Positions 2,544 to 15,691 of a stretch of DNA of 64,000 nt are shown here, piece by piece. Position 1 is the stretch's first letter; every line of letters begins with the position of its first letter. The notes under the pieces were generated by a model. That model had not been told where the DNA came from. It ran no database searches and saw nothing but the letters and a program-made list of their open reading frames with translations. The position numbers were made by a program, and so were the translations under genes. The stretch comes from a virus, in IMG/VR virus record IMGVR_UViG_3300028920_001037, positions 11,063 through 75,062 of that record; one strand, 5' to 3'.

Positions 2544-2572
2544 AATATAATACATTATTATTTAAAAGTCAA
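2544..2572 (-). promoter_or_regulatory. Sigma70-type (early) promoter
   Basis: TTGACT-17bp-TATATT. Confidence 0.78.
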
Positions 2573-2581
2573 GTTAAAAAT

Positions 2582-2685
2582 TATAAATATATTAAAGTAG
2601 GGAGACAGATGGTTGCAACCATTTTCTTTGCCTGAACAAAGATTATCTCTACATTAACTTCAATCACCTTTCAGGAGGTATTATG
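2582..2685 (+). ncRNA. Late promoter plus structured 5' leader (three-way junction, kissing loop over the RBS), copy 1
   Basis: TATAAATA 2582-2589; P1 GTAGGGA/TCTCTAC; GAC; P2 AGATGGT/ACCATTT; P3 TCTTTG-CCTGAA-CAAAGA; TTA; P4 ACCT-TTCAGG-AGGT just before ATG 2683. Confidence 0.7.
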
Positions 2686-3588
2686 TTTTCAACAGCGGAT
2701 TTTATTAAAAGAGCTAAACTTATTCATGGTAATAAATATGATTATTCTAAAACTAATCATATCAATTCAAAAACTAAACTTTGTATTATTTGTCCAAAAC
2801 ATAAAGAATTTTGGACTCTTCCACATAATCATTTAAAAGGTCAGGGTTGTCCAAATTGTTACAATGAAATTCGAGGAATCAAATCGAAAATATCTAAAAA
2901 ATTTTTTATTGATTCTTGTAATAAAATTCATAATAACAAATATAAATATGATATAAATACTTTCAATGGAATGACTAGCCGTATTAAAATTAAATGCCCT
3001 ATTCATGGTTTATTTTTTAAAATTGCATATGCTCATTTAACTTCTAAACAGGGTTGCCAAAAATGCTCTTATGAAAGCCAACTAAAACCTTTAAGCAGTT
3101 TTATAACCGAATCTAATAAAATTCATAATAATAAATATAAATATAACAATTTTATTTATTTAGGAGCATTTAAAAAAAGTTATATAACATGTTATATACA
3201 TGGCGATTTTTTACAAGATCCGCATTCACATTTAAAAGGCCATGGTTGCCCAAAATGTAATTCATCTAAAGGTGAATTAGTTGTTGAACAATATTTAAAA
3301 GAACATAATATTAAATTTAAACGTCAATATAAATTTAAAGATTGTAAAGATAAAAAACCTTTACCTTTTGATTTTTATTTGCCTAATTTTAATATATGTA
3401 TCGAATATGATGGTGAACAACATTTTGGTAAATGGTTTACAAAAATAAAAATAGATTTTAATATTATAAAATTACATGATAATATAAAAAACGAATATTG
3501 TAAAAATAATAATATTAAACTAATAAGAATACCTTATACTAAAATAAATAAAATTAATACTATATTATCTAATATAATGAACTATTAA
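2683..3588 (+). mobile_element. Free-standing putative homing endonuclease (repeated C-x-x-H...GCxxC modules plus C-terminal PD-(D/E)XK/Vsr-like domain)
   Basis: Three HxNKYxY...ICPxH...HL..GCPxC repeats; LPFDFYLP..NICIEYDGEQH; LIRIPY; oriented opposite to its neighbours. Confidence 0.8.
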
Positions 3589-4045
3589 AAGCTTTATAAA
3601 ATATATTAATAGCTTTTTGTTTTAACATATCATCAACAGTATCAAAATACCAACTTACCATATTACATATAAAAGGATGCTTTTTATATAGTTCATTATC
3701 GCTTATAAGAATAATAGGTTTCCTAAATTCATACGCAAAAGCTATTTCCATGATAGTTCCTAACATAGGTCTTTCAACACCAAAGTTTTCCATATAAGCT
3801 ATAAACAAATCACATGTTTTAATAGCTATATAATCTTTATCTAATATAGCTTTAGTTGGTACATTAGATGTTAATCCATCTGGTGATACATTATCTTCAC
3901 CATTCAAAGGGTTTAAAAAACAAAGGTCACCATAATTTTTACCTGTATTTTTCCAGTTAGTATAATGTTTAATTACTTTATGGCGCCACTCTCTACATTT
4001 TTCAATATTTTTTCCATCGATTATACCCGCAAGATAAACTTTCAT
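3569..4045 (-). CDS. Nucleoside 2-deoxyribosyltransferase / nucleotide N-glycosidase-like protein
   Basis: VYLAG, WR, LNP, D...I..CD, GT.MEIAFA...KPII. Confidence 0.75.
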   Translation of the reverse strand: MKVYLAGIIDGKNIEKCREWRHKVIKHYTNWKNTGKNYGDLCFLNPLNGEDNVSPDGLTSNVPTKAILDKDYIAIKTCDLFIAYMENFGVERPMLGTIMEIAFAYEFRKPIILISDNELYKKHPFICNMVSWYFDTVDDMLKQKAINIFYKAFNSSLY

Positions 4046-4047
4046 AA

Positions 4048-4572
4048 TTAAAACCTCCTTATATTAACATCGGCTCTTTCAATTGAAGCCTTTACTGTAT
4101 CTTCTAATGTATTATGAATCTTTGGTATACTTACTTTACCAAAACCTTTATCCAACCAAACAGCTTCCCACATAATATCTGAATAACTAATTCTATATGC
4201 ATTATCAGGTCTACCATAAACAACCTTATATAGTTCTCTACCAATCCAATATCCCAGTTCCCAATTAGTTGTAAGTCCAATTAATTCTCTCGTTCTTGGA
4301 ATCCAAAACAAAATACAATTGGCTCTTTTCAATCCATTAAACTCCCAAAGTGGAATCCAAGATTTGTTTTTATCTGATTCAGTTTTACTTACAAACTCGG
4401 GAACAACTAATGAACCGGTGAATCCTTGTCTTTCAAACTCTTCAATAGCAGCGAATCTCCACGAAGTTAAATGGGTTTGGTTACCTCTAACAGTCGGCCC
4501 TGCCAAAAAAATAACCGGACCTTTTACATTTTTAACCTGTTCTTTTGATTGTTCATACCTGAATACATTCAT
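4048..4572 (-). CDS. Nucleoside 2-deoxyribosyltransferase-like protein (second, divergent)
   Basis: IFLAGP, SWR, WE..GL..A..ILFWIPR, TTNWELG. Confidence 0.75.
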   Translation of the reverse strand: MNVFRYEQSKEQVKNVKGPVIFLAGPTVRGNQTHLTSWRFAAIEEFERQGFTGSLVVPEFVSKTESDKNKSWIPLWEFNGLKRANCILFWIPRTRELIGLTTNWELGYWIGRELYKVVYGRPDNAYRISYSDIMWEAVWLDKGFGKVSIPKIHNTLEDTVKASIERADVNIRRF

Positions 4573-5681
4573 TATAACCTCACTCTTGTTTTACTTTCTT
4601 CCCAACCCTGATTAGTTATTTCAACAAATTTTACTTTCTTTCTAAACTCTTCCCAGTTTCTACAACCAGCATAATATGAAACAGCAGATTGTAAATTGCC
4701 AATAATGTTATTAACAATTTCTTTTGTTTCACCTGTATATGGGATTTGACCTGATTCACCTTCAATTGAAATCGCAGTCTTTTCACTTTTAAGTTTACTT
4801 GAAGCTTCCTTACTTGCCATTCCACTATATGAAACCCATCTAATTTCTTTTGGATTCTCTGTTAAATCACCAGCTTCATCTAACTTATCTCCGTTAGAAA
4901 GACTAGTTGAGGCCAGCATCTTTCCCAACATACACATATCTGCACCGGCAGCTATTGCTTTGCATATATCTCCCGGTGTTTCTATTCCACCATCGGCAAT
5001 TAGATATGCTGTATCTTTAACTTTTGCACAATCAAAAACAGAAGTCAATGTAGGTAATCCAAAACCAGTATTAGTTCTTGTTGTACAAATACTGCCACCA
5101 CCAATACCAACTCTTATAAAGTTAGCACCAGCATCCTGTAGTCTTGCATATCCACTCCTTGTAGCAACATTTCCGGCCATGATATTTGTTGTTACCCAAT
5201 TTGGACTGTTTTTTGAAATAAACTTAATAGTTTCAATGCTTGCTTTGGTATCTCCATTTGCAACATCAACAACAAATCCAAAATTATATCTATTGGCATT
5301 TTTATATTCTAATAATCTTTCAATCCATTTTCTCCATTTAGCAACTATTCCAACAGCCAAAAAAACTGTAGGTTGTTGTTCTTCTTTAAATTCACAATCT
5401 TCATAGAATTGGATTTGTTCATTAACATTTGCAAAACATCTATCAATAGTTACTGGTAAATTAAATTCATGTGATAGACATTTAATCATTTTAACACTAC
5501 AAACTTTATCCATTGGTGAATTAATAATTGGCGCCTTTACTATAAAAGATTCACAGTTAGCTGGTAAGAAATCAGAACCATATTTATAGCTTATATCAGC
5601 ATCCGTTAGATGATCTAAATTAGAATTTCTAGGAACCAACAACACATCATTGTACGACAATACTCTACGAATGTCATTCAT
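4572..5681 (-). CDS. GMP reductase / IMP dehydrogenase family (no CBS domains; GMP reductase favoured)
   Basis: YNDVLLVP, SPMD, DVANG, AGNVAT, GIGGGSICTTR (catalytic Cys), IADGGI..GDICKA, YSGMAS; no Arg-Tyr flap dyad seen. Confidence 0.88.
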   Translation of the reverse strand: MNDIRRVLSYNDVLLVPRNSNLDHLTDADISYKYGSDFLPANCESFIVKAPIINSPMDKVCSVKMIKCLSHEFNLPVTIDRCFANVNEQIQFYEDCEFKEEQQPTVFLAVGIVAKWRKWIERLLEYKNANRYNFGFVVDVANGDTKASIETIKFISKNSPNWVTTNIMAGNVATRSGYARLQDAGANFIRVGIGGGSICTTRTNTGFGLPTLTSVFDCAKVKDTAYLIADGGIETPGDICKAIAAGADMCMLGKMLASTSLSNGDKLDEAGDLTENPKEIRWVSYSGMASKEASSKLKSEKTAISIEGESGQIPYTGETKEIVNNIIGNLQSAVSYYAGCRNWEEFRKKVKFVEITNQGWEESKTRVRL

Positions 5682-5683
5682 TT

Positions 5684-5878
5684 TTAATACCCCAATTCTC
5701 TTTCCGATATAAGTGTACGTGCATCATCAAACATTACAGCTAAACTATCATAAACTTCATAATCTTCATCAGAACAATCGTTCATAATTTCATGAACTTC
5801 ATTTCTTTTATTTAAAAGATAACTTTGAACTTCCTGTTTAATTTTTTCAGCGTTTGTCATACTTTTATTTAAATCCAT
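5684..5878 (-). CDS. Hypothetical protein
   Basis: Start reassigned to ATG 5878; abuts the next gene. Confidence 0.45.
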   Translation of the reverse strand: MDLNKSMTNAEKIKQEVQSYLLNKRNEVHEIMNDCSDEDYEVYDSLAVMFDDARTLISERELGY

Positions 5879-6188
5879 GTTTAATAACTCCTTCACCATG
5901 ACAACATTTACAAGTATCATATCCATCAATATCATATGATGATAACACACAATCCGTTGATGTTATTATTATTGTACCTAATGTGCAGTCTGAATTTCCA
6001 ACATTGATAATTTCAAGTTCGCACCAACATATCCCACAACCTTTAAGTTTAAGTAAAACAGATTCATCTATAAAACTACCTTTACCAGATTTTATTGAGT
6101 GTGAATATAACTTCCTATATTGTTTTGGTTTTATATTATTACCATAACATATAGACGATACTTTAAGGTGTTGGTTCATTTCATTCAT
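5865..6188 (-). CDS. Hypothetical Cys-rich protein
   Basis: CGIC and CKCC..EG motifs. Confidence 0.5.
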   Translation of the reverse strand: MNEMNQHLKVSSICYGNNIKPKQYRKLYSHSIKSGKGSFIDESVLLKLKGCGICWCELEIINVGNSDCTLGTIIITSTDCVLSSYDIDGYDTCKCCHGEGVIKHGFK

Positions 6189-6190
6189 AA

Positions 6191-6595
6191 CTAACCTTTC
6201 TCATATGGAAAAACCACCCATTTTGTATTCATCTTAGCATAGAAGTCCGGTTCAATTGGACTATCTTTATGTTTAAAAATGGTAGCTAACTTACATTTAG
6301 TCTTATCAAAGTTAAGTGAATTAATTGTTTCACCTGTATCACAAATGTCATCGACTATCAACATATTATTACATAACCTACAGTTAAGAATCTCTACAAA
6401 TTCTATACCTAATTGATGTGATATGATAGTTGCTGGAAATAAACCTCCACGGGGTATGCCATATACGCAATCAAACTTACTTTTAGATTGTTTGATTTTC
6501 TTTATCAATCTATTAATATAATATATATATTCGTCCCAGTCAAGTAAAAATTTACCTTTACCTCGACTTAGACTTCTTTGTCTGGCATTTTTCAT
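6191..6595 (-). CDS. Type I purine phosphoribosyltransferase (Gpt/Hpt-like)
   Basis: GIPRGG, PRPP loop LIVDDICDTGET, WVVFPYE. Confidence 0.85.
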   Translation of the reverse strand: MKNARQRSLSRGKGKFLLDWDEYIYYINRLIKKIKQSKSKFDCVYGIPRGGLFPATIISHQLGIEFVEILNCRLCNNMLIVDDICDTGETINSLNFDKTKCKLATIFKHKDSPIEPDFYAKMNTKWVVFPYEKG

Positions 6596-7331
6596 TTTGA
6601 ACCTTTAAATTCAATATTTCATCAAAACTATCAGACCAATTCTTTTTACAATAATCAGTTGTTACAAACCATTTAAGCCATCTACGATTAATTTCAGAAG
6701 TTTCAACACGAATATATTTAGGATTACGTTCTAATGTATGTCCAACAAAACCATCTTTGTTTTCGTATTTCTTTCCATTTTTAAACATAAAATATTTCTG
6801 ATGATTATTATATTCTTTTTTGGTTAGAAAATCTTCATCAGTCCATTCACCATAAGTCTTTAAAAACTTTTTGCCGATATTAATTAACAATTCTTCATAA
6901 GTTCTACCATTAGCATCAACACCGTGATACAATTGCCATTCTCTTATGTCATGATATTTTGATAAGTCTTTACCATGAAAAACTACAAAAGACATTTCGC
7001 CCCAGTATTCAACATGGTCAAACTTCCATTTCTCACCATAAATAACTTCATAAGGAACATCAGCATATATTAATGCAGAGAAATCCTTTTCACCTGATTC
7101 TTTTAGTTCCTTATCAAAGTATTTTTTATACTTAGCATAATTCTTTTTATTATAAGGAATATGAATTCCATCCTTACCAGCCCAATGTGAATAACCATGT
7201 TTACAAACTTCTTGTAGACTATGCCACAATAATTGCTCAACTGTATAAACAAGTGAACATGAAGTTGCTGGGTGCTGATTAAGCTTCGACAATATGTTAT
7301 TATATTTTTTACATATCTTTCTAGTAATCAT
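6558..7331 (-). CDS. Hypothetical protein
   Basis: 257-aa ORF in operon; no motif recognised. Confidence 0.6.
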   Translation of the reverse strand: MITRKICKKYNNILSKLNQHPATSCSLVYTVEQLLWHSLQEVCKHGYSHWAGKDGIHIPYNKKNYAKYKKYFDKELKESGEKDFSALIYADVPYEVIYGEKWKFDHVEYWGEMSFVVFHGKDLSKYHDIREWQLYHGVDANGRTYEELLINIGKKFLKTYGEWTDEDFLTKKEYNNHQKYFMFKNGKKYENKDGFVGHTLERNPKYIRVETSEINRRWLKWFVTTDYCKKNWSDSFDEILNLKVQNEKCQTKKSKSR

Positions 7332-7579
7332 ATTACATCACCATTTTCCTTTATTTTTAGATCCTCATAATGTGCAAGTATTCTACGTTCAATTTCATTT
7401 GCACATTGTCTTAGTTCTCCAATGAAATTTTTATAGTTATTATAACTTGGTTCAACAGTATCTTGACAGAATTTATATAGAACATAGTTAAGTTTACCAT
7501 CAGGTTTGACACCAGTATGTATCATATTACGAACAACCATATTCATTGTTGGTCTATCTTCTTTTTTAATATATGGCAT
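7328..7579 (-). CDS. Small conserved-type phage protein
   Basis: MPYIKKEDR...G.LNY...YEDLKIKENGDV; AAGGAG RBS before ATG 7579. Confidence 0.65.
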   Translation of the reverse strand: MPYIKKEDRPTMNMVVRNMIHTGVKPDGKLNYVLYKFCQDTVEPSYNNYKNFIGELRQCANEIERRILAHYEDLKIKENGDVI

Positions 7580-7598
7580 ATTAACTCCTTTCAATTAT

Positions 7599-7627
7599 AA
7601 TATAATATATTTCAATAGAAATGTCAA
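7599..7627 (-). promoter_or_regulatory. Sigma70-type (early) promoter
   Basis: TTGACA-17bp-TATATT. Confidence 0.78.
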
Positions 7628-8181
7628 GTGATATGATTTGTTCTAGCAAAATATTTCATTATCAATAATGCTTTAGCACCAAATTTTTTATCTTTTTGTA
7701 ATAGTAATTCTTTAACTTCTCCTTGATTCAATAAGAATTGTTCTATGTCTTCTGAAGCTTCTAAATTATTTATAGACAATTCTCCATTTGCTTTTACAAA
7801 AGCTATAGCAATACTTTCATCTGTAATACCAGGAGAATTAAAAACAAATGGAGTTACCTCATAAATTAACTCAAGGTCTAATCCAGTTTCTTCTTTTAGT
7901 TCTCTCCTAATACAATCTTCAACGGGCTCGTTTTCATCAATGAGTCCAGCAGGGAATCCCCATTCATAATCTTTAATGGAAACCCTAAACTCTTTTATGA
8001 TACATATCTTATTATTATCAGTTTCAGATTCAACAATAGGAATAATCATAACTGCTTTAATATTATTGGGTCTACTAACCCAACTCCATTCTTTATGATT
8101 ACCTTCATTATCTTCATATTGAGTTGAATGAAGCTGAAGATATTTAGATACATTTCTGCAATCGTCTTTCCAAATTTTCAT
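7624..8181 (-). CDS. Nudix hydrolase, ADP-ribose pyrophosphatase-like
   Basis: Nudix box GLIDENEPVEDCIRRELKEETG; EFR and SPG..DE typical of ADPRases. Confidence 0.82.
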   Translation of the reverse strand: MKIWKDDCRNVSKYLQLHSTQYEDNEGNHKEWSWVSRPNNIKAVMIIPIVESETDNNKICIIKEFRVSIKDYEWGFPAGLIDENEPVEDCIRRELKEETGLDLELIYEVTPFVFNSPGITDESIAIAFVKANGELSINNLEASEDIEQFLLNQGEVKELLLQKDKKFGAKALLIMKYFARTNHIT

Positions 8182-8768
8182 CGGTATAATCCATTCTGTT
8201 TAATATATTTTATAACATTTTTATACATAATTTTTTGTTGTAAGTCATTATCATTGTTAGCAATAGCTTCTCTTGCTTGTGTGGATGAATAATCTTTTTT
8301 GTGTTTTTTAAATACAACAGTAGATGGATCCCATTTCAATTCTTCATCATTATAACCTTCACGTTGAAAAACTATAAAAGGAACAGTCTTTAAAAGATCT
8401 TCCCACTTATACCATTTATCAATTTCAATTGCACAATCCATTCCAATAATTACATAAAAGTTTATATGCTTATAAGATTCCATTAAACTTCTTATTGTAT
8501 TATAAAATTTACCATCAGACTTCTTTTGAATTTCATGTAAACAAACCAACATATTATCTTTATGTTTTATTGAACGATAAATCATTTCTATCCTATGAAA
8601 AGAATCAGTAGATATTTTTCCAAGGTTATGAGAGAAACATGGCATAAACCAAACTTGATCAACCAAATCATATGATAAAACTGTTTCTGCAACTTCAACA
8701 TGACTCTTAGTACAAGGGTTAAAAGATCCACCAAAAATACCTACACGTATCTTTTGTTTATTCTTCAT
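8178..8768 (-). CDS. nadD: Nicotinate-nucleotide adenylyltransferase
   Basis: GIFGGSFNPCTKSH (T/HxxH), R..M, IIGMD...I.KWYKW, R.GY, YSST..R, V..YI.QNGLY. Confidence 0.88.
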   Translation of the reverse strand: MKNKQKIRVGIFGGSFNPCTKSHVEVAETVLSYDLVDQVWFMPCFSHNLGKISTDSFHRIEMIYRSIKHKDNMLVCLHEIQKKSDGKFYNTIRSLMESYKHINFYVIIGMDCAIEIDKWYKWEDLLKTVPFIVFQREGYNDEELKWDPSTVVFKKHKKDYSSTQAREAIANNDNDLQQKIMYKNVIKYIKQNGLYR

Positions 8769-9651
8769 TGAAAATATCTTTCCTATTAATTACAATAGGC
8801 CAGTTTCTTTTAAAATGTGTTGCTTTATATCTTTTGATAACTGGATGATTACTATATAGTTCTCTAAAATTAACAAAGCTTTCATAGTCTTCAAGTCTAT
8901 TCTTATACTTCAACCAATCATCCCAAGTAAAACTATCTTGGTCTTTTGTTAACCAAGTTTTTAAAAGCAGATCAACTTCTTCATATGATTTTGCACCAAG
9001 TTGATCTAAATCTGAATTAGAAACACCAAGACCGTCTGTTGGATTTGCTTCAACACAAATTCCTAAAGATGTTATTTTGTCTTGATCTTTTAAACAACTA
9101 TATTCATTAACAACAATCCATCTTGCAACTTCATATACCTCTGTTTTCCAAAGCTGTTGAATCATTCCATAATCTCCAACATCACCACAAAGCGTCCAGA
9201 AACCTAAATAATATTCAGTTAAGTTATCAGTTGAAAGAACTATTCCTTTTTTTACTTGTGCAAGATTATAAAGATAAATCATTCTTAATCTGGCTTTAAT
9301 GTTACCTCTTCTTATCTTGTCGGCTTTAGAATCCCACTCGACACAATCATGTAAATCATCTGTCAATTGATAATAAGAATGTATAAGACTTTGATCTTCC
9401 AAGAAATCGTGACAAAAGGATTCTCCAACTAATTTTGCTCTTTCAATTTCGTCTTGTTTGTTTGACTCAATTGGAAGACTTCTACCAATAAGAGGAATAT
9501 CCAATTCATCACAAACAGGTCTTGCTAATGCACAACATAAAGCTGAATCAATTCCACCAGAAACTCCAATGACTAAAGATTTTATATCATATTTAATAAT
9601 ATAATCCTTTAATTCTTTTTGGATATTTTTAACAACCAGTTCACAATTCAT
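8758..9651 (-). CDS. nadE: NH3-dependent NAD+ synthetase
   Basis: GVSGGIDSA, GNIKARLRM..LY, STDNLTE..LGFWT..GD, KTEV, PTDGL, D.DQLG. Confidence 0.92.
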   Translation of the reverse strand: MNCELVVKNIQKELKDYIIKYDIKSLVIGVSGGIDSALCCALARPVCDELDIPLIGRSLPIESNKQDEIERAKLVGESFCHDFLEDQSLIHSYYQLTDDLHDCVEWDSKADKIRRGNIKARLRMIYLYNLAQVKKGIVLSTDNLTEYYLGFWTLCGDVGDYGMIQQLWKTEVYEVARWIVVNEYSCLKDQDKITSLGICVEANPTDGLGVSNSDLDQLGAKSYEEVDLLLKTWLTKDQDSFTWDDWLKYKNRLEDYESFVNFRELYSNHPVIKRYKATHFKRNWPIVINRKDIFNEE

Positions 9652-9660
9652 ATTAATTTC

Positions 9661-9864
9661 TTACCAATCTTCTGAATGTGTTAAATCAAATTCTTCACCA
9701 CAAGCACACTTAATAGTTTTAATACAACCAAGTCCTGTGGGTGTAAAACAATATGTAAATCTTCCACCAATTGCTCCCTGTTTCATTGGGTCTGCAAACG
9801 GGCAAGTTTTATTATGTTCTTCTTTCCAATCTTGCAGTTCTTTATTATCCATCCGAAATTGCAT
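9661..9864 (-). CDS. Small hypothetical protein
   Basis: GAIGG...FTPTGLG....C.CG. Confidence 0.6.
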   Translation of the reverse strand: MQFRMDNKELQDWKEEHNKTCPFADPMKQGAIGGRFTYCFTPTGLGCIKTIKCACGEEFDLTHSEDW

Positions 9865-9873
9865 ATTAGTTCC

Positions 9874-10185
9874 TTATGGCAATATGATTCCACTATCGGT
9901 TTTCTTTGCAGCTATTGGTGGTTGACCACCCTGAATAACCTGAACTACTTGCTGTACATTATGATGAAGAACATTCATATTATTTGCAATGACATTAACC
10001 ATCTGAGCTAATCCACCCATATCATTACCAATGAAATCAATTGCCTCAAGCAATTCACCTTTAGTAACAGTTTCATCGGGATTCTCACTAAGCTTCTTAT
10101 GGAAAGCTTCATATGCTTTTTTATGTTCTTCCATTGCTTTTTTCATTTCTTCTTCAGTCATCTGTTTCTGTTCTTGTTTACTCAT
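9874..10185 (-). CDS. Hypothetical coiled-coil protein
   Basis: 103-aa ORF, ATGA overlap with upstream gene. Confidence 0.55.
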   Translation of the reverse strand: MSKQEQKQMTEEEMKKAMEEHKKAYEAFHKKLSENPDETVTKGELLEAIDFIGNDMGGLAQMVNVIANNMNVLHHNVQQVVQVIQGGQPPIAAKKTDSGIILP

Positions 10186-10703
10186 AGTTTGCTCCTAACT
10201 AGATTAAAATTATCTGGTAATGTATTCATTTTATCTTTTACTTGTTCCCAAGAATATGGGTAAAAATTATTAGTATCTACTCCACAATCAAAACTTTTAC
10301 CCCAAGGTTCTAACATTCCATGCGAGTGGCCATAAAGCGAAAAAGCATTATAATGAGATTTGTGCCATATCCTCATAGAACAATGAGATAAAGTTATATT
10401 TATTCCTTCTATTTTGGTATTTAATAATTGATTATATGAAGCAAATAAATGTTTACAGTTTTTAGTATTTTTATCATGAGAACCTAATATTAAATGAATA
10501 TTGCCATTTAATCTTCTTAAATGTTTTTGAACGTCACCAAAAGCAAAATCACCTAAATGATATACTATATCATTTTTTCTGACTACAGAATTCCAATTTG
10601 TAATAATAACCTCATCGTGTTCTTCTATAGAACTAAACGGTCTATTACAATATTTAATTATATTTCGGTGTGAAAAGTGCGTATCGGCTGTAAAATATAT
10701 CAT
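10182..10703 (-). CDS. Calcineurin-like metallophosphoesterase
   Basis: ADTHFSH, HLGDF, GSHD, SH, GHSH; start at ATG 10703 overlapping the GIY-YIG stop (ATGA). Confidence 0.88.
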   Translation of the reverse strand: MIYFTADTHFSHRNIIKYCNRPFSSIEEHDEVIITNWNSVVRKNDIVYHLGDFAFGDVQKHLRRLNGNIHLILGSHDKNTKNCKHLFASYNQLLNTKIEGINITLSHCSMRIWHKSHYNAFSLYGHSHGMLEPWGKSFDCGVDTNNFYPYSWEQVKDKMNTLPDNFNLVRSKL

Positions 10704-11317
10704 AATTGTTTTCTCAATTTCCACAGGCTAATATTTAATTTTCTACTGGCTTCTCTTAGCGATCCATATTCTATACCGTTTATAACTATTTGTATTGATT
10801 TTGGGTGTTCTTTTCCGGGTTTAAATGACGTTTTTAATTTTTTTCCATATAAATAATGTTCTTTTCCTCTATGATAATATCTATTAGCTATTTTCTTTTT
10901 TGAATCTTTTGAATGATGTTTTCCATAAAAGGGATTATTTTTTCCTAAAATATTTGGTCTTGGCCCCTTTAAGTTTTCAATATGTTTTTTTGATTTTGGT
11001 TTCCCTAATAAAGCCATTTTAATTTTTTGTTTATGAGTTTCTGATAAACTATCAACTCCATAACTTCCCAATCTCAAATTATAACCAATATTTGGATTAA
11101 TAGATTTTAATTTTTTAATCCAATAAATTTCTCTTTCATCAACTCCAGATATACAATGTTCAAGTATCTCTCTTTTAAAATTTTCTTTACCATATTTTTT
11201 AATATCTTCATTCAATTTAGATCCAGAACCTAAATATCCATCATCTGCACTACTATAATGTTTACCTACATAAATCTTTCCATTAACTAGATTTGTTGTT
11301 TTGTAAATAATACTCAT
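10700..11317 (-). mobile_element. Free-standing GIY-YIG (Seg-like) homing endonuclease with NUMOD3-like repeats
   Basis: IIYKTTNLVNGKIYVGKH, YLGSG, F.REILE, E.YWI, GYN; NPFYGKHHS. Confidence 0.9.
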
Positions 11318-11420
11318 AAGATACCCCCGATTAAGGTTTAAGTTGGAGATACCGGATAATCCTAAATCGGATAGGAAAGGTGATCAAACCCTGTCTCCAA
11401 GTATCCTATAAGTATTTATT
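11315..11420 (-). ncRNA. Late promoter plus structured 5' leader, copy 2
   Basis: AATAAATA; P1 GGATAC(T)TGGA/TCCGGTATCT; GAC; P2 AGGGT/ACCTT; P3 TCCTA-TCCGATT-TAGGA; TTA; P4 ACCT-TAATCGG-GGGT before ATG 11317. Confidence 0.7.
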
Positions 11421-11423
11421 ATT

Positions 11424-11717
11424 TTAAACCAATCCGAAGTGAACCAATAATTCATCATCAATCTTTCTATCTGGATTTCTATCTTTAATTATTTTAAAAC
11501 TGGAAAATTCTGCTTCTTTTAATTCATGTGTTATATATTTATCACATATATGTAACAGTCGAGTACTAATTCTACCTGGTCGTGAATTATAAAGATCTGA
11601 TGGACATACAAAAATTAATTCTTCATCGTTTTCACGAGCTTCTTCTCTTAATTTATATAAAGCTAAATCAAAATCTTTTACTAAAATATTTTTTAAATCA
11701 TCCCAAGTGACTATCAT
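11424..11717 (-). CDS. Hypothetical protein
   Basis: 97-aa ORF in operon. Confidence 0.55.
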   Translation of the reverse strand: MIVTWDDLKNILVKDFDLALYKLREEARENDEELIFVCPSDLYNSRPGRISTRLLHICDKYITHELKEAEFSSFKIIKDRNPDRKIDDELLVHFGLV

Positions 11718-11718
11718 A

Positions 11719-12012
11719 TTAACGACAACGACATATACTATAACATTTACTAGAAGTTTCCCAACCTAAATATCTACACCCATTACTATAAGTATGAATA
11801 AAAGCCGAGTCACCAATACCAACATCAACTAAAGTATATAGTATAAAAAATCTCTTATCAGTCTTAATCTGCATTTTAACAGGCTCATTCCATGAAGTCG
11901 GAACAACACTAGCATCTTTTATTATTCCAACATATTCCTTATTAACCATTATGGGTTGTTCAGAACAACCAATCAAAAACAATGCTACAACTAACAATAT
12001 CAATTTCTTCAT
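11719..12012 (-). CDS. Putative lipoprotein
   Basis: MKK plus hydrophobic stretch plus lipobox LIGC. Confidence 0.7.
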   Translation of the reverse strand: MKKLILLVVALFLIGCSEQPIMVNKEYVGIIKDASVVPTSWNEPVKMQIKTDKRFFILYTLVDVGIGDSAFIHTYSNGCRYLGWETSSKCYSICRCR

Positions 12013-12014
12013 AA

Positions 12015-12482
12015 TTACCTCAATCCATAGAAATAGAGTAAAGCCGCCCAGCCAGAGGGCAACATATTTGGAGCTTCTTTTAATTCTTTACCATATTTAA
12101 TTGCCATTTCTAACATAAACTTTGCATGAAAGAAAGCTTCCAACAAAGGTCTTGTATTCTTTTCCCAATGTTTGCCATGAGAAAGATGCTTATGGTTGGT
12201 TCCGTTTTTAAATATTTCCATAAAGGTTTCATTAAACTTTGTATCTTTAGGAGCTAAAGATTTTAACACATCAACAATCTTAATAGTTAGGTTTTGAATG
12301 TAATAGACCTTAGCTGAATAATGATAAAACCTATAGATACTATCTTCATAATTCCAATGACTGTTAATATCATCCCATAAATTATCTAAATCAGATAATC
12401 TATTTTGGATATTAGTTAACAGTTCTTGATTGCGTTTGGCTAATTCTTCAAAGTAGTTATTGTTCATTATTAAAAAACACAT
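12015..12482 (-). CDS. Hypothetical protein
   Basis: YRFYH.S.KV, LEAFFHAK, LPSGWAALLY; function unknown. Confidence 0.6.
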   Translation of the reverse strand: MCFLIMNNNYFEELAKRNQELLTNIQNRLSDLDNLWDDINSHWNYEDSIYRFYHYSAKVYYIQNLTIKIVDVLKSLAPKDTKFNETFMEIFKNGTNHKHLSHGKHWEKNTRPLLEAFFHAKFMLEMAIKYGKELKEAPNMLPSGWAALLYFYGLR

Positions 12483-13009
12483 TTAACAAAGTGGCAACCG
12501 GCATCTTTCATTTCTTGAATAGATGTTTCTGTATTTTTTTCATCAACACCAGCGATGGCATTCTCAAAAATATATACATCAATATTTCTTTTACGGAGTC
12601 CAAGTGCCGCGGCCTTAATACATACATCTGCGGCTACTCCTGCCAGCCATACTTCTGTAACCTTCTTATCTTTCAACCACTTATCAATATCTTTGTTGCC
12701 AAGTTTTCCATCGAATACATCATAAGTTTTCTTATCAAAGTAAACAGCCTTTTTAGTTTTAGTCTTAGCTTCTGGAATAAGTTCAGCGCCTGGCGTATCT
12801 GTGATACAATGAGGTGGAAATGTTTTAAATTCGGGGTCAGAACTATCATGTTGGTCTTGTGTAAAGAAAATATCACATTTGCGCTGTACTGCAAAACTAA
12901 CAAGGTTCTTTATATTTTTCTTAATGCTTGTCGCATTAGGAACATATAAATTTCCATTTTCATTCATAAAGTCATTCTGCACGTCTATGAAACCAAACAC
13001 TCTGTTCAT
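12470..13009 (-). CDS. pncA: Nicotinamidase (isochorismatase family)
   Basis: IDVQNDF, G.L.V, DQH, FPPHC...T.GA, K, GVAADVC (catalytic Cys); start at ATG 13009 after AAGGGG. Confidence 0.9.
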   Translation of the reverse strand: MNRVFGFIDVQNDFMNENGNLYVPNATSIKKNIKNLVSFAVQRKCDIFFTQDQHDSSDPEFKTFPPHCITDTPGAELIPEAKTKTKKAVYFDKKTYDVFDGKLGNKDIDKWLKDKKVTEVWLAGVAADVCIKAAALGLRKRNIDVYIFENAIAGVDEKNTETSIQEMKDAGCHFVKCVF

Positions 13010-13044
13010 ACGAACCCCTTTCAAATTGTTATATTTCTATATAT

Positions 13045-13073
13045 AATATAATTCTTTTTAAACGAAAAGTCAA
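13045..13073 (-). promoter_or_regulatory. Sigma70-type (early) promoter
   Basis: TTGACT-17bp-TATATT upstream of pncA. Confidence 0.8.
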
Positions 13074-13087
13074 GTCTTTTAGTTTAG

Positions 13088-13468
13088 TTATATTTTTAGA
13101 TCATCAATTATCTTTTGTTGTTTTTCCATTTCAATTTCTGTTCTCTCTCTAGCCTGTTCGTTTCTCATATTTTCATATCTTGTTTCTAATTCTTGTAGCT
13201 TTGCTGTAGCTATTGCCATTTTAAAGATATTAGCTAAGATAGCCATCGATTCTTTCTGCTTAACATTTTGTAGTAAATATAATAACATATCAAAAAACTT
13301 TACATATGTTAGTCTTTTACTTTTAAGCGATACAATTATATTTGCAACTATTCTTTTTTGAACCGTTGCAAACCTTAAATTAACCTCAAGTTTCAAAAGA
13401 TATTCTAAGAAGTCTTTTATATGTTCTTCTTTTGGTTTTAATGTTCTTGATACTCTTGGTATTTGCAT
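13088..13468 (-). CDS. Hypothetical protein
   Basis: 126-aa ORF after the ligase C-half. Confidence 0.55.
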   Translation of the reverse strand: MQIPRVSRTLKPKEEHIKDFLEYLLKLEVNLRFATVQKRIVANIIVSLKSKRLTYVKFFDMLLYLLQNVKQKESMAILANIFKMAIATAKLQELETRYENMRNEQARERTEIEMEKQQKIIDDLKI

Positions 13469-13471
13469 TTA

Positions 13472-14311
13472 TTACATTCCTATCATTTTAAAGAAATCTT
13501 CCTCACTAATGATTCTAATTCCTAGTTGATTTGCTTTCTTAGTCTTTGAAGATGTTGAACTAGGATCTGCTTGAATTAATCCAGATACACCCTTCTTAAC
13601 CGTCTTTTCACAAGAACCACCGTTCTCATAAACCAATTCCTGCAACATGTTTCTTGTGTACCTGTTTCCGTTTTCATCGATTCTCTGAACTGCACCAGTA
13701 AATACAAAAACTTCTCCATCCAATTGACTTGAACTCACTTCAACCTCCTTAGGTTTTTCAACACCTTTTATTGTGATAACTTCCAATAATTTTTTAATTG
13801 TAGTTTTCTTTTTGGACAATCCATAAACAATTTCTTCTGCAACTCTATCACCAATTCCTTTAATACGGACAAGTTCTTCCTCACCTATATTTAACATTTT
13901 ATCCAGAGTATCAATTCCATTTTCAATCAATAATTCTGCTCTAGACTTTGAAAAATTAGGAATGTTTAATCCATCAATGAAGGTTGCTAAATCTATTTCT
14001 TTCTTGTCATTAAAGTTCTTAATAATCTTCTTAGCTGACTTAGTTCCCATGCCCTGAAGATTTGCTATTCTGTTTTCATCAAGTCGATAGAAATCTGAAG
14101 GGTCATAGACTATTTCAGCATTTTCAAACAATTCAATAGTCTTTATACTTATTGCATCAATGTCAAGTGCATCAACCCATTTCTGAAGATTGCCTATCCT
14201 TAATCCTTTACATTCAGTATTTTCACACATTAAATAAGTTCCGTCGTTATTTAATTCTTCATTACACATTGGACACCATAAAGGCGGTTTGAAATATTTT
14301 TTATTCTCCAT
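13472..14311 (-). CDS. ligA: NAD-dependent DNA ligase, C-terminal half (Zn finger, HhH, BRCT)
   Basis: CPMC...C.N..C, GMGTKSA, L.IP, IKGIG HhH repeats, BRCT FVFTG..R...GG...K.KKA..LGI.IISE. Confidence 0.88.
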   Translation of the reverse strand: MENKKYFKPPLWCPMCNEELNNDGTYLMCENTECKGLRIGNLQKWVDALDIDAISIKTIELFENAEIVYDPSDFYRLDENRIANLQGMGTKSAKKIIKNFNDKKEIDLATFIDGLNIPNFSKSRAELLIENGIDTLDKMLNIGEEELVRIKGIGDRVAEEIVYGLSKKKTTIKKLLEVITIKGVEKPKEVEVSSSQLDGEVFVFTGAVQRIDENGNRYTRNMLQELVYENGGSCEKTVKKGVSGLIQADPSSTSSKTKKANQLGIRIISEEDFFKMIGM

Positions 14312-14314
14312 AAA

Positions 14315-14460
14315 CTATTCCCTTCTTTTCAAATATAATTTAAACTCTTTTTCTGTTTTTCCTTTTTTACTAAACTAATTTTATGTTTTTTAAGATGCGC
14401 GTTAATTATTTGTTTAAATTTTTGACCACAAATTTTACATCTAACAAAATTTTGATTCAT
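14315..14460 (-). pseudogene. Internally deleted homing-endonuclease remnant
   Basis: MNQNFVRCKICGQKFKQIINAHLKKH (C2H2-like) stops at 14329; another frame reads SKKGKTEKEFKLYLKRRE* (HNH-like C-terminus) ending at 14315. Confidence 0.6.
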
Positions 14461-14560
14461 AAAACCTCCACATTAGGTTAATAGCAGGAAGCATAAAGTA
14501 ATCCTTATGTGGAAAGGAAACGGAATGATCGCTAGTCCTTTATACTCCCTATTATTTATA
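14458..14560 (-). ncRNA. Late promoter plus structured 5' leader, copy 3
   Basis: TATAAATA 14560-14553; P1 AGGGAGTATAAAG/CTTTATGCTTCCT; GAC; weak P2; P3 TCCTT-TCCACAT-AAGGA; TTA; P4 AACCT-AATGTGG-AGGTT before ATG 14460. Confidence 0.72.
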
Positions 14561-14563
14561 ATT

Positions 14564-15691
14564 TTACTCAATAATTTTTTCAATTTGTGGTATAACATCT
14601 CCACGTCTAGAAATTAAAACTTTTGCATTTTTATAAGGTTTAAGTTCATTAAAAACTTTTAAATTATGTAATGATGCTTTTGTTACTACTACACCACCAA
14701 CTTTAACGGGTTTAAGTATAGCAACTGGTGTAATTCTACCACTAGATCCAGTCTGCCATTCTATATTTTCTAAAATAGTTTCAGCCTTCATTGCACCGAA
14801 TTTCCAGGCTATATGTGCCTTTGGATTTCCATTAAGTTCACCCAAAATTTTTTGTAATTTAACATTATTGCATTTTACTACGAGACCATCTATATCATAT
14901 TTAGTTTGTGCCCTTAAATGGTCTTCATAATCATTATAAACATTAACAGCATCATTAACTGTTACTTTTTTATAATAACATGTTTTAATATTATTATCTT
15001 TTAACCATTGTAGTTTTTGTTCTTCAGTTTCCCAATCACCTGTAATATCATAATACAATACTGTAAGGTATTCTGAATTAGTTCCATCATATCGTTTTGA
15101 TATACCACTAGCTGCATTTCTTGGATTCTTCATTTCTTTTTCACATCGTTCCATCAAAATGAAGTTTAGTTTCTCAAAATCAGAAACAAGCATTATAATT
15201 TCTCCACGAAGGGAACCTGTAAAATTTTTAATGTTACCCAACACATTCTTCATTTTCCTAACATTGTTGAGTATATTTTCACCTTCAATTCCATCTCCAC
15301 GGGTAATTGCCTTAACTAATTTGCCGTTTTCATACTCAAGGTCAACGCTAATTCCATCCAATTTATCCATGATTATATAGTGCGAATCTCCGATGGTATC
15401 AGACCATTTGATAAATTCTTCTTGCGTATTTACCTTATTTAGGGAACACATGGGGATTTTATGGGTAGCCTTCTCCCATTCTGTGACACCAACTTTAGCT
15501 CCGATGCGATTAACGAAATCATCTGTGGGAAATCTTTCAGCATATATTTTAGTAGCTTCGTCAAACTCTTGGTCTGACATGGTTGGTTCTGATTTGTTAT
15601 AATAGTGGTCGCTAGCTTCAAGTAGCATTTTTTTGAGGTCTTCTTGTTTCATATGTCTAAACACATCATATAAATTTATTACCGACATCAT
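14564..15691 (-). CDS. ligA: NAD-dependent DNA ligase, N-terminal half (Ia, adenylation, OB)
   Basis: YY....P.MSD.EFD, H..PM.SL, KLDG, TRGDG..GE, RGE, NPRNAASG, DGLVVK, AWKF, GRITPVA, ASLHN, RRGDVIP then TAA. Confidence 0.92.
   Translation of the reverse strand: MMSVINLYDVFRHMKQEDLKKMLLEASDHYYNKSEPTMSDQEFDEATKIYAERFPTDDFVNRIGAKVGVTEWEKATHKIPMCSLNKVNTQEEFIKWSDTIGDSHYIIMDKLDGISVDLEYENGKLVKAITRGDGIEGENILNNVRKMKNVLGNIKNFTGSLRGEIIMLVSDFEKLNFILMERCEKEMKNPRNAASGISKRYDGTNSEYLTVLYYDITGDWETEEQKLQWLKDNNIKTCYYKKVTVNDAVNVYNDYEDHLRAQTKYDIDGLVVKCNNVKLQKILGELNGNPKAHIAWKFGAMKAETILENIEWQTGSSGRITPVAILKPVKVGGVVVTKASLHNLKVFNELKPYKNAKVLISRRGDVIPQIEKIIE

Follow-up and report, generated by a model that had tools for sequence, protein, structure and literature searches.

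The stretch of DNA considered here (the window) is 64,000 nucleotides (nt) long and covers positions 11,063 to 75,062 of IMG/VR record IMGVR_UViG_3300028920_001037, a contig of an uncultured T4-like phage from marine sediment. Three nuclease genes in the window are each headed by a leader with one shared RNA fold, and these leaders are referred to as E1 (plus strand), E2 and E3 (both minus strand). E1 precedes a gene of the DUF4379/DUF723 type, for which a profile comparison also gives a weak PvuRts1I-like match at the N-terminal side; E2 precedes a GIY-YIG gene with NUMOD3; and behind E3 there is a short remnant.

The order of parts is the same in all three (Table 1). On rereading the sequence, each element was found where a preliminary description of this DNA had placed it, with a late-promoter-like box, a helix P1, the bases GAC, the helices P2 and P3, the bases UUA, the returning strand of P1, and then an ACCU-loop-RGGU hairpin that holds the Shine-Dalgarno (SD) sequence. 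P2 always opens with an A-U and a G-U pair, and P3 abuts P2 directly, opening with U-A and C-G. A linker of 9–13 nt over the whole family (11–13 nt and pyrimidine-rich in the window) leads to the 4-bp SD hairpin, and in the window copies the spacer to the ATG is 3–5 nt. The three-way junction is the structure predicted by ViennaRNA for E1 and E3; the minimum-energy fold of E2 is dominated not by the junction but by a further helix, P0, which is described below.

A late box is present in every copy of the family and is of the type NATAAATA, being TATAAATA in E1 and E3 and AATAAATA in E2. It ends 5–9 nt ahead of the first P1 column of our covariance model in 24 of the 25 copies measured, and abuts P1 in copy L136; in the window, P1 begins 7–9 nt after it. 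In most copies P1 is seen by eye to be extended by three RGA/UCU pairs, its first paired base then being the 7th after the box. Given a T4-like start, the late mRNA would begin flush with the helix, the first paired base of P1 lying at about +1 or +2.

Table 1. Parts of the three leaders and of the adjoining genes (window positions; for minus-strand helices the 5' strand is given first)
Feature	Position	Strand	Description
E1 late-promoter-like box	2582-2589	+	TATAAATA; P1 begins 8 nt downstream
E1 three-way junction	2597-2652	+	minimum-free-energy and centroid fold, model match (E 4.9e-7), covariation
E1 P1	2597-2603 with 2646-2652	+	GAC 2604-2606; UUA 2643-2645
E1 P2	2607-2624	+	14-nt perfect palindrome, UGCA loop
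E1 P3	2625-2630 with 2637-2642	+	loop (L3) CCUGAA 2631-2636
E1 linker	2653-2665	+	
E1 SD hairpin	2666-2679	+	ACCU 2666-2669, loop UUCAGG 2670-2675, AGGU 2676-2679; loop pairs with L3 2631-2636
E1 start codon ATG	2683-2685	+	
E1 nuclease gene	2683-3588	+	301 aa; DUF4379 and DUF723 zinc modules, phrog_559/9084 (homing endonuclease)
GTCAAG word of E1	2568-2573	+	upstream of the late box
E2 late-promoter-like box	11413-11420	-	AATAAATA
E2 three-way junction	11349-11403	-	model match, covariation
E2 P1	11403-11396 with 11356-11349	-	GAC 11395-11393; UUA 11359-11357
E2 P2	11392-11377	-	loop contains UGAUCA
E2 P3	11376-11372 with 11364-11360	-	kissing strand CCGAUU 11370-11365
E2 linker	11348-11338	-	
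E2 SD hairpin	11337-11323	-	ACCU 11337-11334, loop including AAUCGG 11332-11327, GGGU 11326-11323
E2 start codon ATG	11317-11315	-	
E2 nuclease gene	10700-11317	-	205 aa; GIY-YIG (SegE-like) with NUMOD3
E2 helix P0	11416-11401 with 11324-11309	-	16 bp, predicted -18.4 kcal/mol
E3 late-promoter-like box	14553-14560	-	TATAAATA; starts 4 nt past the stop codon of the ligase N-terminal piece
E3 three-way junction	14491-14545	-	fold, model match, covariation
E3 P1	14545-14538 with 14498-14491	-	GAC(U) 14537-14534; UUA 14501-14499
E3 P2	14533-14519	-	GAUC overlapping the stem
E3 P3	14518-14514 with 14506-14502	-	kissing strand CCACAU 14512-14507
E3 linker	14490-14479	-	
E3 SD hairpin	14478-14464	-	ACCU 14478-14475, loop including AUGUGG 14473-14468, AGGU 14467-14464
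E3 start codon ATG	14460-14458	-	
Remnant reading frame behind E3	14329-14460	-	43 aa; CxxC...HxxxH start
NAD-dependent DNA ligase, both pieces	13472-15691	-	flank the E3 cassette; translated separately
Ligase N-terminal piece	14564-15691	-	adenylation and OB domains; own stop codon
Ligase C-terminal piece	13472-14311	-	HhH and BRCT; own SD (GAAGGGA) and ATG

MAFFT alignments of three or five copies (A1-A3) were structurally wrong, and were replaced by a covariance model built from a single sequence, one foreign copy from a pattern scan of IMG/VR, and by alignments made with that model. The model contains the nested helices only. A first, loose IMG/VR pattern had returned 117 loci, of which just two were real. 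Applied to the window, the model matches the three elements at E values of 1.8e-10, 1.5e-7 and 4.9e-7, and its next-best match stands at 0.66. The same model finds 13 copies in G001, a complete phage genome of 253,664 bp with terminal repeats, five in G006, a 42-kb contig, and one or two in several other records. The set used here comprises 35 distinct intact copies and two truncated ones, and covariation was computed on 26 distinct copies.

Standard pairs fill 94.1% of the cells, compared with 70.0% in shuffles, and none of 500 shuffles reaches any of the measures. Changes on both sides of a pair are seen at 25 of the 29 pairs, and every measure collapses when the partners are slid by 1–3 columns. 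Four of the helices had been used in fitting the alignment, and their covariation counts lean towards the structure for that reason. Covariation of the loop-loop helix, which had been proposed from the three window copies, is borne out, and all five helices covary. The columns of the junction are 99–100% identical in all copies, whereas the stems are only 40–70% identical. The invariant core consists of the GAC, the first pairs of P2 (AG/UU), the first pairs of P3 (UC/GA) and the UUA. G-U pairs, such as the invariant one in P2, are tolerated on the sense strand only, which points to an element that acts as RNA and not as DNA.

The loop of P3 is complementary to the loop of the SD hairpin in all 35 intact copies, over 5–7 bp and with about 26 different sequences. 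In the window the match is exact, as originally described (CCUGAA/UUCAGG in E1, CCGAUU/AAUCGG in E2 and CCACAU/AUGUGG in E3), and kissing sequences elsewhere include CCAAUU, CUUACC, CCAGUA, CUCACU, CCGCAA and CUACAG. Because this loop-loop (kissing) helix had been left out of both the search patterns and the model, it provides an independent test. Double changes are found at five of its six pairs, and its first pair is almost always C-G, using the first G of the SD. When P3 loops were compared with the downstream regions of other copies, 6 bp were reached in only 17 of 628 pairings. Among all sites of the form ACCY-loop-RGGY-start in the whole 75-kb contig, a complement to the loop lies upstream only in E1, E2 and E3, 33–35 nt away.

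The SD itself (GGAGGU, or GGGGGU in E2) begins with the last two bases of the loop and continues through the 3' strand of the hairpin stem. All of it is base-paired: AGGU with ACCU, and the two leading G's, together with four further bases, with the P3 loop; both helices covary. Local folding of the SD region is worth only about -3.8 kcal/mol on average, to which a correctly identified kissing duplex contributes a further -6 to -9 kcal/mol. With so weak a local fold and so strong a kissing helix, occlusion of the SD depends on the junction presenting the P3 loop. A pairing of GUUUCU with GGAGGU, which a naive complement search suggested, is rich in wobble pairs and worth -1.1 kcal/mol, and was dismissed as meaningless.

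A further, long-range helix, P0, occurs in 16 copies, all of them ahead of an open reading frame of the GIY-YIG type that starts AUGAGU. It has 13–18 bp and a mean predicted energy of -15.2 kcal/mol, which in 13 of the 16 copies lies at z -4 to -7 relative to shuffles (-4.2 in one test and -6.0 in another for E2). In E2, its 5' strand is made up of the end of the late box, the spacer and the first 3 nt of P1, and its 3' strand runs from the end of the SD through the spacer and the AUG to codons 2 and 3. Two copies have a double change from A-U to G-C, L132 has a compensated 1-nt deletion in both strands, and the remaining changes are transitions compatible with pairing. It had been expected that the late transcript would contain the entire structure. 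This is so for the junction and for the hairpin with the SD; it leaves out P0 of E2, the 5' strand of which includes the late box.

Late transcripts were modelled as starting about 6 nt past the box, as assumed from T4. The predicted cost of opening positions -13 to +6 of E2 is then 21.9 kcal/mol in the read-through form and 9.6 kcal/mol in the late form. L127, L132 and L138 behave like E2, and the drop in L135 is smaller (from 10.5 to 7.5 kcal/mol). For E1, E3 and the HNH-type and E1-type copies, the start site is predicted to be equally accessible in read-through and late transcripts. Comparing own with cross pairing of the box region and the start region was uninformative, both strands being conserved between copies, and the accessibility and shuffle tests were used instead. 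Pairing of the linker with the box-proximal spacer was no better than in cross-copy controls.

Every copy of the leader precedes a gene of the homing endonuclease type or its remnant, and domain matches place these genes in at least four unrelated families: the DUF4379/DUF723 type with its weak PvuRts1I-like match (phrog_559/9084; E1), GIY-YIG with NUMOD3 (E2), HNH with NUMOD3, and endonuclease VII-like. The link to nuclease genes in the preliminary description is thus upheld throughout. Many of these genes survive only as short, broken frames (2, 15, 23, 26, 32, 43 or 44 aa). The 43-aa frame is the one behind E3, which had been described as a decayed HNH-like gene. It has no match in domain and family profile comparisons, and beyond its CxxC...HxxxH start an HNH origin could not be demonstrated.

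The suggestion that the module travels with the nucleases is true in so far as it serves several nuclease families, but homologues of the E1-type nuclease at 28 other IMG/VR loci carry the leader in only two cases. Since most of these homologues lack it, the leader belongs to the phage lineage and not to the nuclease family. The late boxes of this lineage are of the T4 kind. No close relative of it is in culture, and the most similar ligases from cultured sources share only about 35% identity with its own. A blastn search of a phage collection with one copy (G001 leader L126:1480-1600) returned no copy.

Several observations on the relatives may be added here. Two truncated leaders in G001, L139:1501-1579 (minus strand) and L126:2542-2641 (plus strand), have an intact junction and have lost the SD hairpin and most of the gene; in both, the 5' half that remains runs into the stub of an HNH C-terminus. 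Two intact G001 leaders ahead of nucleases from different families, L126:1501-1590 and L130:1501-1589, are identical at 50 of the 51 positions of P1, P2 and P3, and differ at five of the six positions in both kissing strands; both flanks diverge. This pattern suggests that scaffolds undergo gene conversion or are exchanged as modules, each copy keeping its own code. G001 also encodes a RegA-type translational repressor (L183, G001:239485-239829; PF01818, E 2.5e-23), and this speaks for post-transcriptional control of the T4 kind in the lineage. A RegB homologue, sought with cleavage at GGAG in mind, was not found in five records, a weak negative in that the positive control also gave no match.

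The word GTCAAG (often TTGTCAAG) lies upstream of the late box in eight of the 26 copies, namely E1, L126, L130, L131, L133, L137, L141 and L124. Its distance from the box is 2–16 nt (7–9 nt in six copies, 2 in L133 and 16 in L124), and only leaders of the E1 and HNH types have it. A role as a middle-promoter or operator element in this lineage is conceivable.

The E3 cassette separates the two pieces of an NAD-dependent DNA ligase, which in the relative G001 is a single frame of 645 aa. The arrangement resembles the genes-in-pieces organisation of Aeh1 nrdA/mobE, with the difference that here the nuclease itself has decayed to 43 aa. Readings as a group I intron or a split intein were rejected: the N-terminal piece has its own stop codon and the C-terminal piece its own SD and ATG, there is no RF00028 match, and the intervening stretch is only 252 nt. 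That the leader also precedes free-standing genes counts likewise against E3 as an intron.

The closest known systems are found in the T-even phages. Structures that sequester the ribosome-binding site (RBS) and have late promoters embedded in them regulate I-TevI, I-TevII, I-TevIII, segB and Aeh1 mobE (PMC2988022). As in those leaders, an RNA in cis pairs with the SD, and a late promoter of the TATAAATA type lies within the cassette. There the late box is inside the inhibitory 5' strand. On paper, and with a putative start, the same is true here of P0 in the 16 GIY-YIG-type copies, E2 among them, whereas the junction and the kissing helix would stay on the late transcript, the box ending 5–9 nt before P1. 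A second difference is that the T-even leaders are single hairpins, non-homologous between genes, whereas the present fold has five helices and is homologous across genes and genomes. It is thus a family of RNAs of about 90 nt, with several helices and a covarying tertiary contact, which would work like the T-even RBS hairpins without being one of them.

Docking of a loop in the 5' domain onto the loop of a downstream RBS hairpin is also a feature of the cobalamin riboswitch (its L5-L13 contact). The present RNA has no B12 box, no four-way aptamer and no Rfam match, and its only aptamer-like part is a small three-way junction. The lack of a B12 box had been remarked upon before, and agrees with the absence of any match to the Rfam models, those for cobalamin (RF00174 and relatives) included. 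Nor does the RNA match any other Rfam family, again as first thought: Rfam 15 gives no match at the gathering threshold over the whole window, only noise on the other strand or elsewhere for the E1 region at E up to 10, and nothing at the leader in seven copies at E up to 5. The candidate RNA int-alpA (RF02996) is a comparable phage-associated orphan, and has no match at E up to 10 in G000, G001, G002, G003 and G006, which together contain 24 copies. A full-text search of the literature found no description of this RNA, and it is not discussed in the main text of a survey of structured phage RNAs (PMC10690425).

What the sequences show is the fold, with its loop-loop helix lying over the SD, a late box at a fixed place, and nuclease genes as the exclusive downstream partners. 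Because the whole SD is paired in covarying helices, an OFF element is the natural reading. On the basis of this structural model, we consider it probable, with moderate confidence, that the leader is a cis-acting lock on translation initiation in homing endonuclease mRNAs driven by the late promoter. The element would be the complete 5' leader of the mRNA made from that promoter. Its invariant-core junction would hold out the P3 loop towards the weak SD hairpin downstream, and this loop would pair with the two leading G's of the SD and four free bases, burying the SD in a stacked helix of about 10 bp. Few ribosomes would then start, and little of the DNA-cutting enzyme would be made from any transcript. 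In the GIY-YIG-type copies, including E2, P0 would in addition hide the AUG, forming only on transcripts that read through from upstream. This would add temporal control to the Seg-like copies, late transcripts escaping by the T4 rule as they lose most of the 5' strand of P0. The proposal of a translational OFF element is therefore sound as regards the fold, the loop-loop helix and the stem, which together pair the whole of GGAGGU; repression at the RNA level, and a transcription start about 6 nt after the box, are what we infer as most likely.

Several points weigh against a simple lock. A plain hairpin would suffice to hide the SD, and the invariance of the junction core, along with the retention of a perfect SD, hints at something beyond constant damping. 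Outside the GIY-YIG subtype, the start site is predicted to be equally accessible in the two kinds of transcript, and no way of reaching an ON state can be seen. The position of the late start is taken over from T4, and the only sequencing runs that contain this DNA are two of marine-sediment DNA.

An alternative reading is a regulated switch, which we regard as possible, though unlikely. Here the core would bind a ligand or a phage or host protein, or the P2 loops would dimerise, or an RNase would cut the AU-rich linker, and any such event would decide whether the P3 loop holds the SD. The near-identity of the junction columns beside variable stems fits this idea, as does the retention of a perfect GGAGG at ideal spacing in nearly every copy; processing by RNase E close to the RBS, reported for the T4 seg genes and mobE (PMC2988022), counts in the same direction. 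No ligand, protein or alternative pairing for an ON state has been identified, however, and no riboswitch model matches in the Rfam scans.

Dimerisation draws on the P2 loop (L2), for which a search in cis found no partner elsewhere in its own RNA. A palindrome of at least 4 nt is present in 17 of the 26 copies (mean 8.9 and maximum 16 in 2000 shuffles), and one of at least 6 nt in nine of the 26. Near-identical leaders in G006 differ only in this loop, and both versions are palindromic (UUGCAA and GUCGAC in one case, UAGCUA and UCAUGA in another). Against this, the palindrome is absent in nine of the 26 copies (loops such as GGCA, GACG, UCGCU and CAUU), and the palindromic loop of E1 has just 4 nt, too small to kiss. 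There is a likeness in sequence to the dimerisation site of HIV-1 (SL1/DIS), in that purines flank a palindrome of 6 nt in several P2 loops (A-GUCGAC-A, A-GUCAUGA), which remain palindromic as their bases change. Here, however, a palindrome is found in 17 of the 26 copies only, some loops have 4 nt, and the setting is a phage mRNA leader and not a retroviral genome. Self-complementary words lie at or near the P2 loop in each of the window copies (UGCA in E1, UGAUCA in E2 and GAUC in E3), and GAUC is the commonest such word in the family.

A more specific version of the switch, put forward a little more tentatively still, is that the conserved scaffold carries two hypervariable codes. The pairing of L3 with the SD loop would lock each mRNA only to itself, and the self-complementary P2 loop would let only identical leaders pair, so that the translation of an mRNA might be adjusted to the amount of that mRNA, or to a shared ligand or protein recognised by the core.

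It is improbable that the fold serves primarily to stabilise or process the 5' end, or is a small ribozyme; the late mRNA would in that case be shielded by its paired end, or cleavage directed by the fold would separate it from an upstream message. Base-paired 5' ends stabilise bacterial mRNAs, and the extended P1, placed as described at about +1 or +2 under the T4 rule, would suit such a role, but the constant and covarying kissing partner in the SD loop would be left unexplained. The ribozyme-like module suggested earlier finds no backing: no Rfam ribozyme family matches even at E up to 5–10, no motif resembling a catalytic core is seen, and with 3, 0 and 3 nt the junction strands leave no room for a hammerhead-like core. 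A signal at the DNA level (a nuclease target, a recombination site or an operator), for which the perfect DNA palindromes in P2 (14 bp in E1) and the GTCAAG word in eight of the 26 copies might speak, is hardly credible, given that compensatory changes keep the pairing, that G-U is allowed on one strand only and that loop-loop complementarity is meaningless in duplex DNA; chance resemblance is excluded by the model scores and the cross-copy control.

Homing endonucleases are selfish genes that need tight control by the phage, for which T4 uses simple, gene-specific hairpins. In the present lineage, one conserved RNA module, with up to 13 copies in a genome, stands before nucleases of at least four unrelated families, and promoter-plus-leader modules seem to be exchanged or homogenised between mobile genes inside a phage genome. 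The family merits an Rfam entry. With it, the homing endonuclease cassettes of uncultured phages could be annotated better, even where they have decayed. The family would also be a series of naturally evolved, orthogonal RBS locks that share one scaffold, useful as a model for the evolution of tertiary RNA contacts, and could in addition provide a parts list for synthetic translational control.

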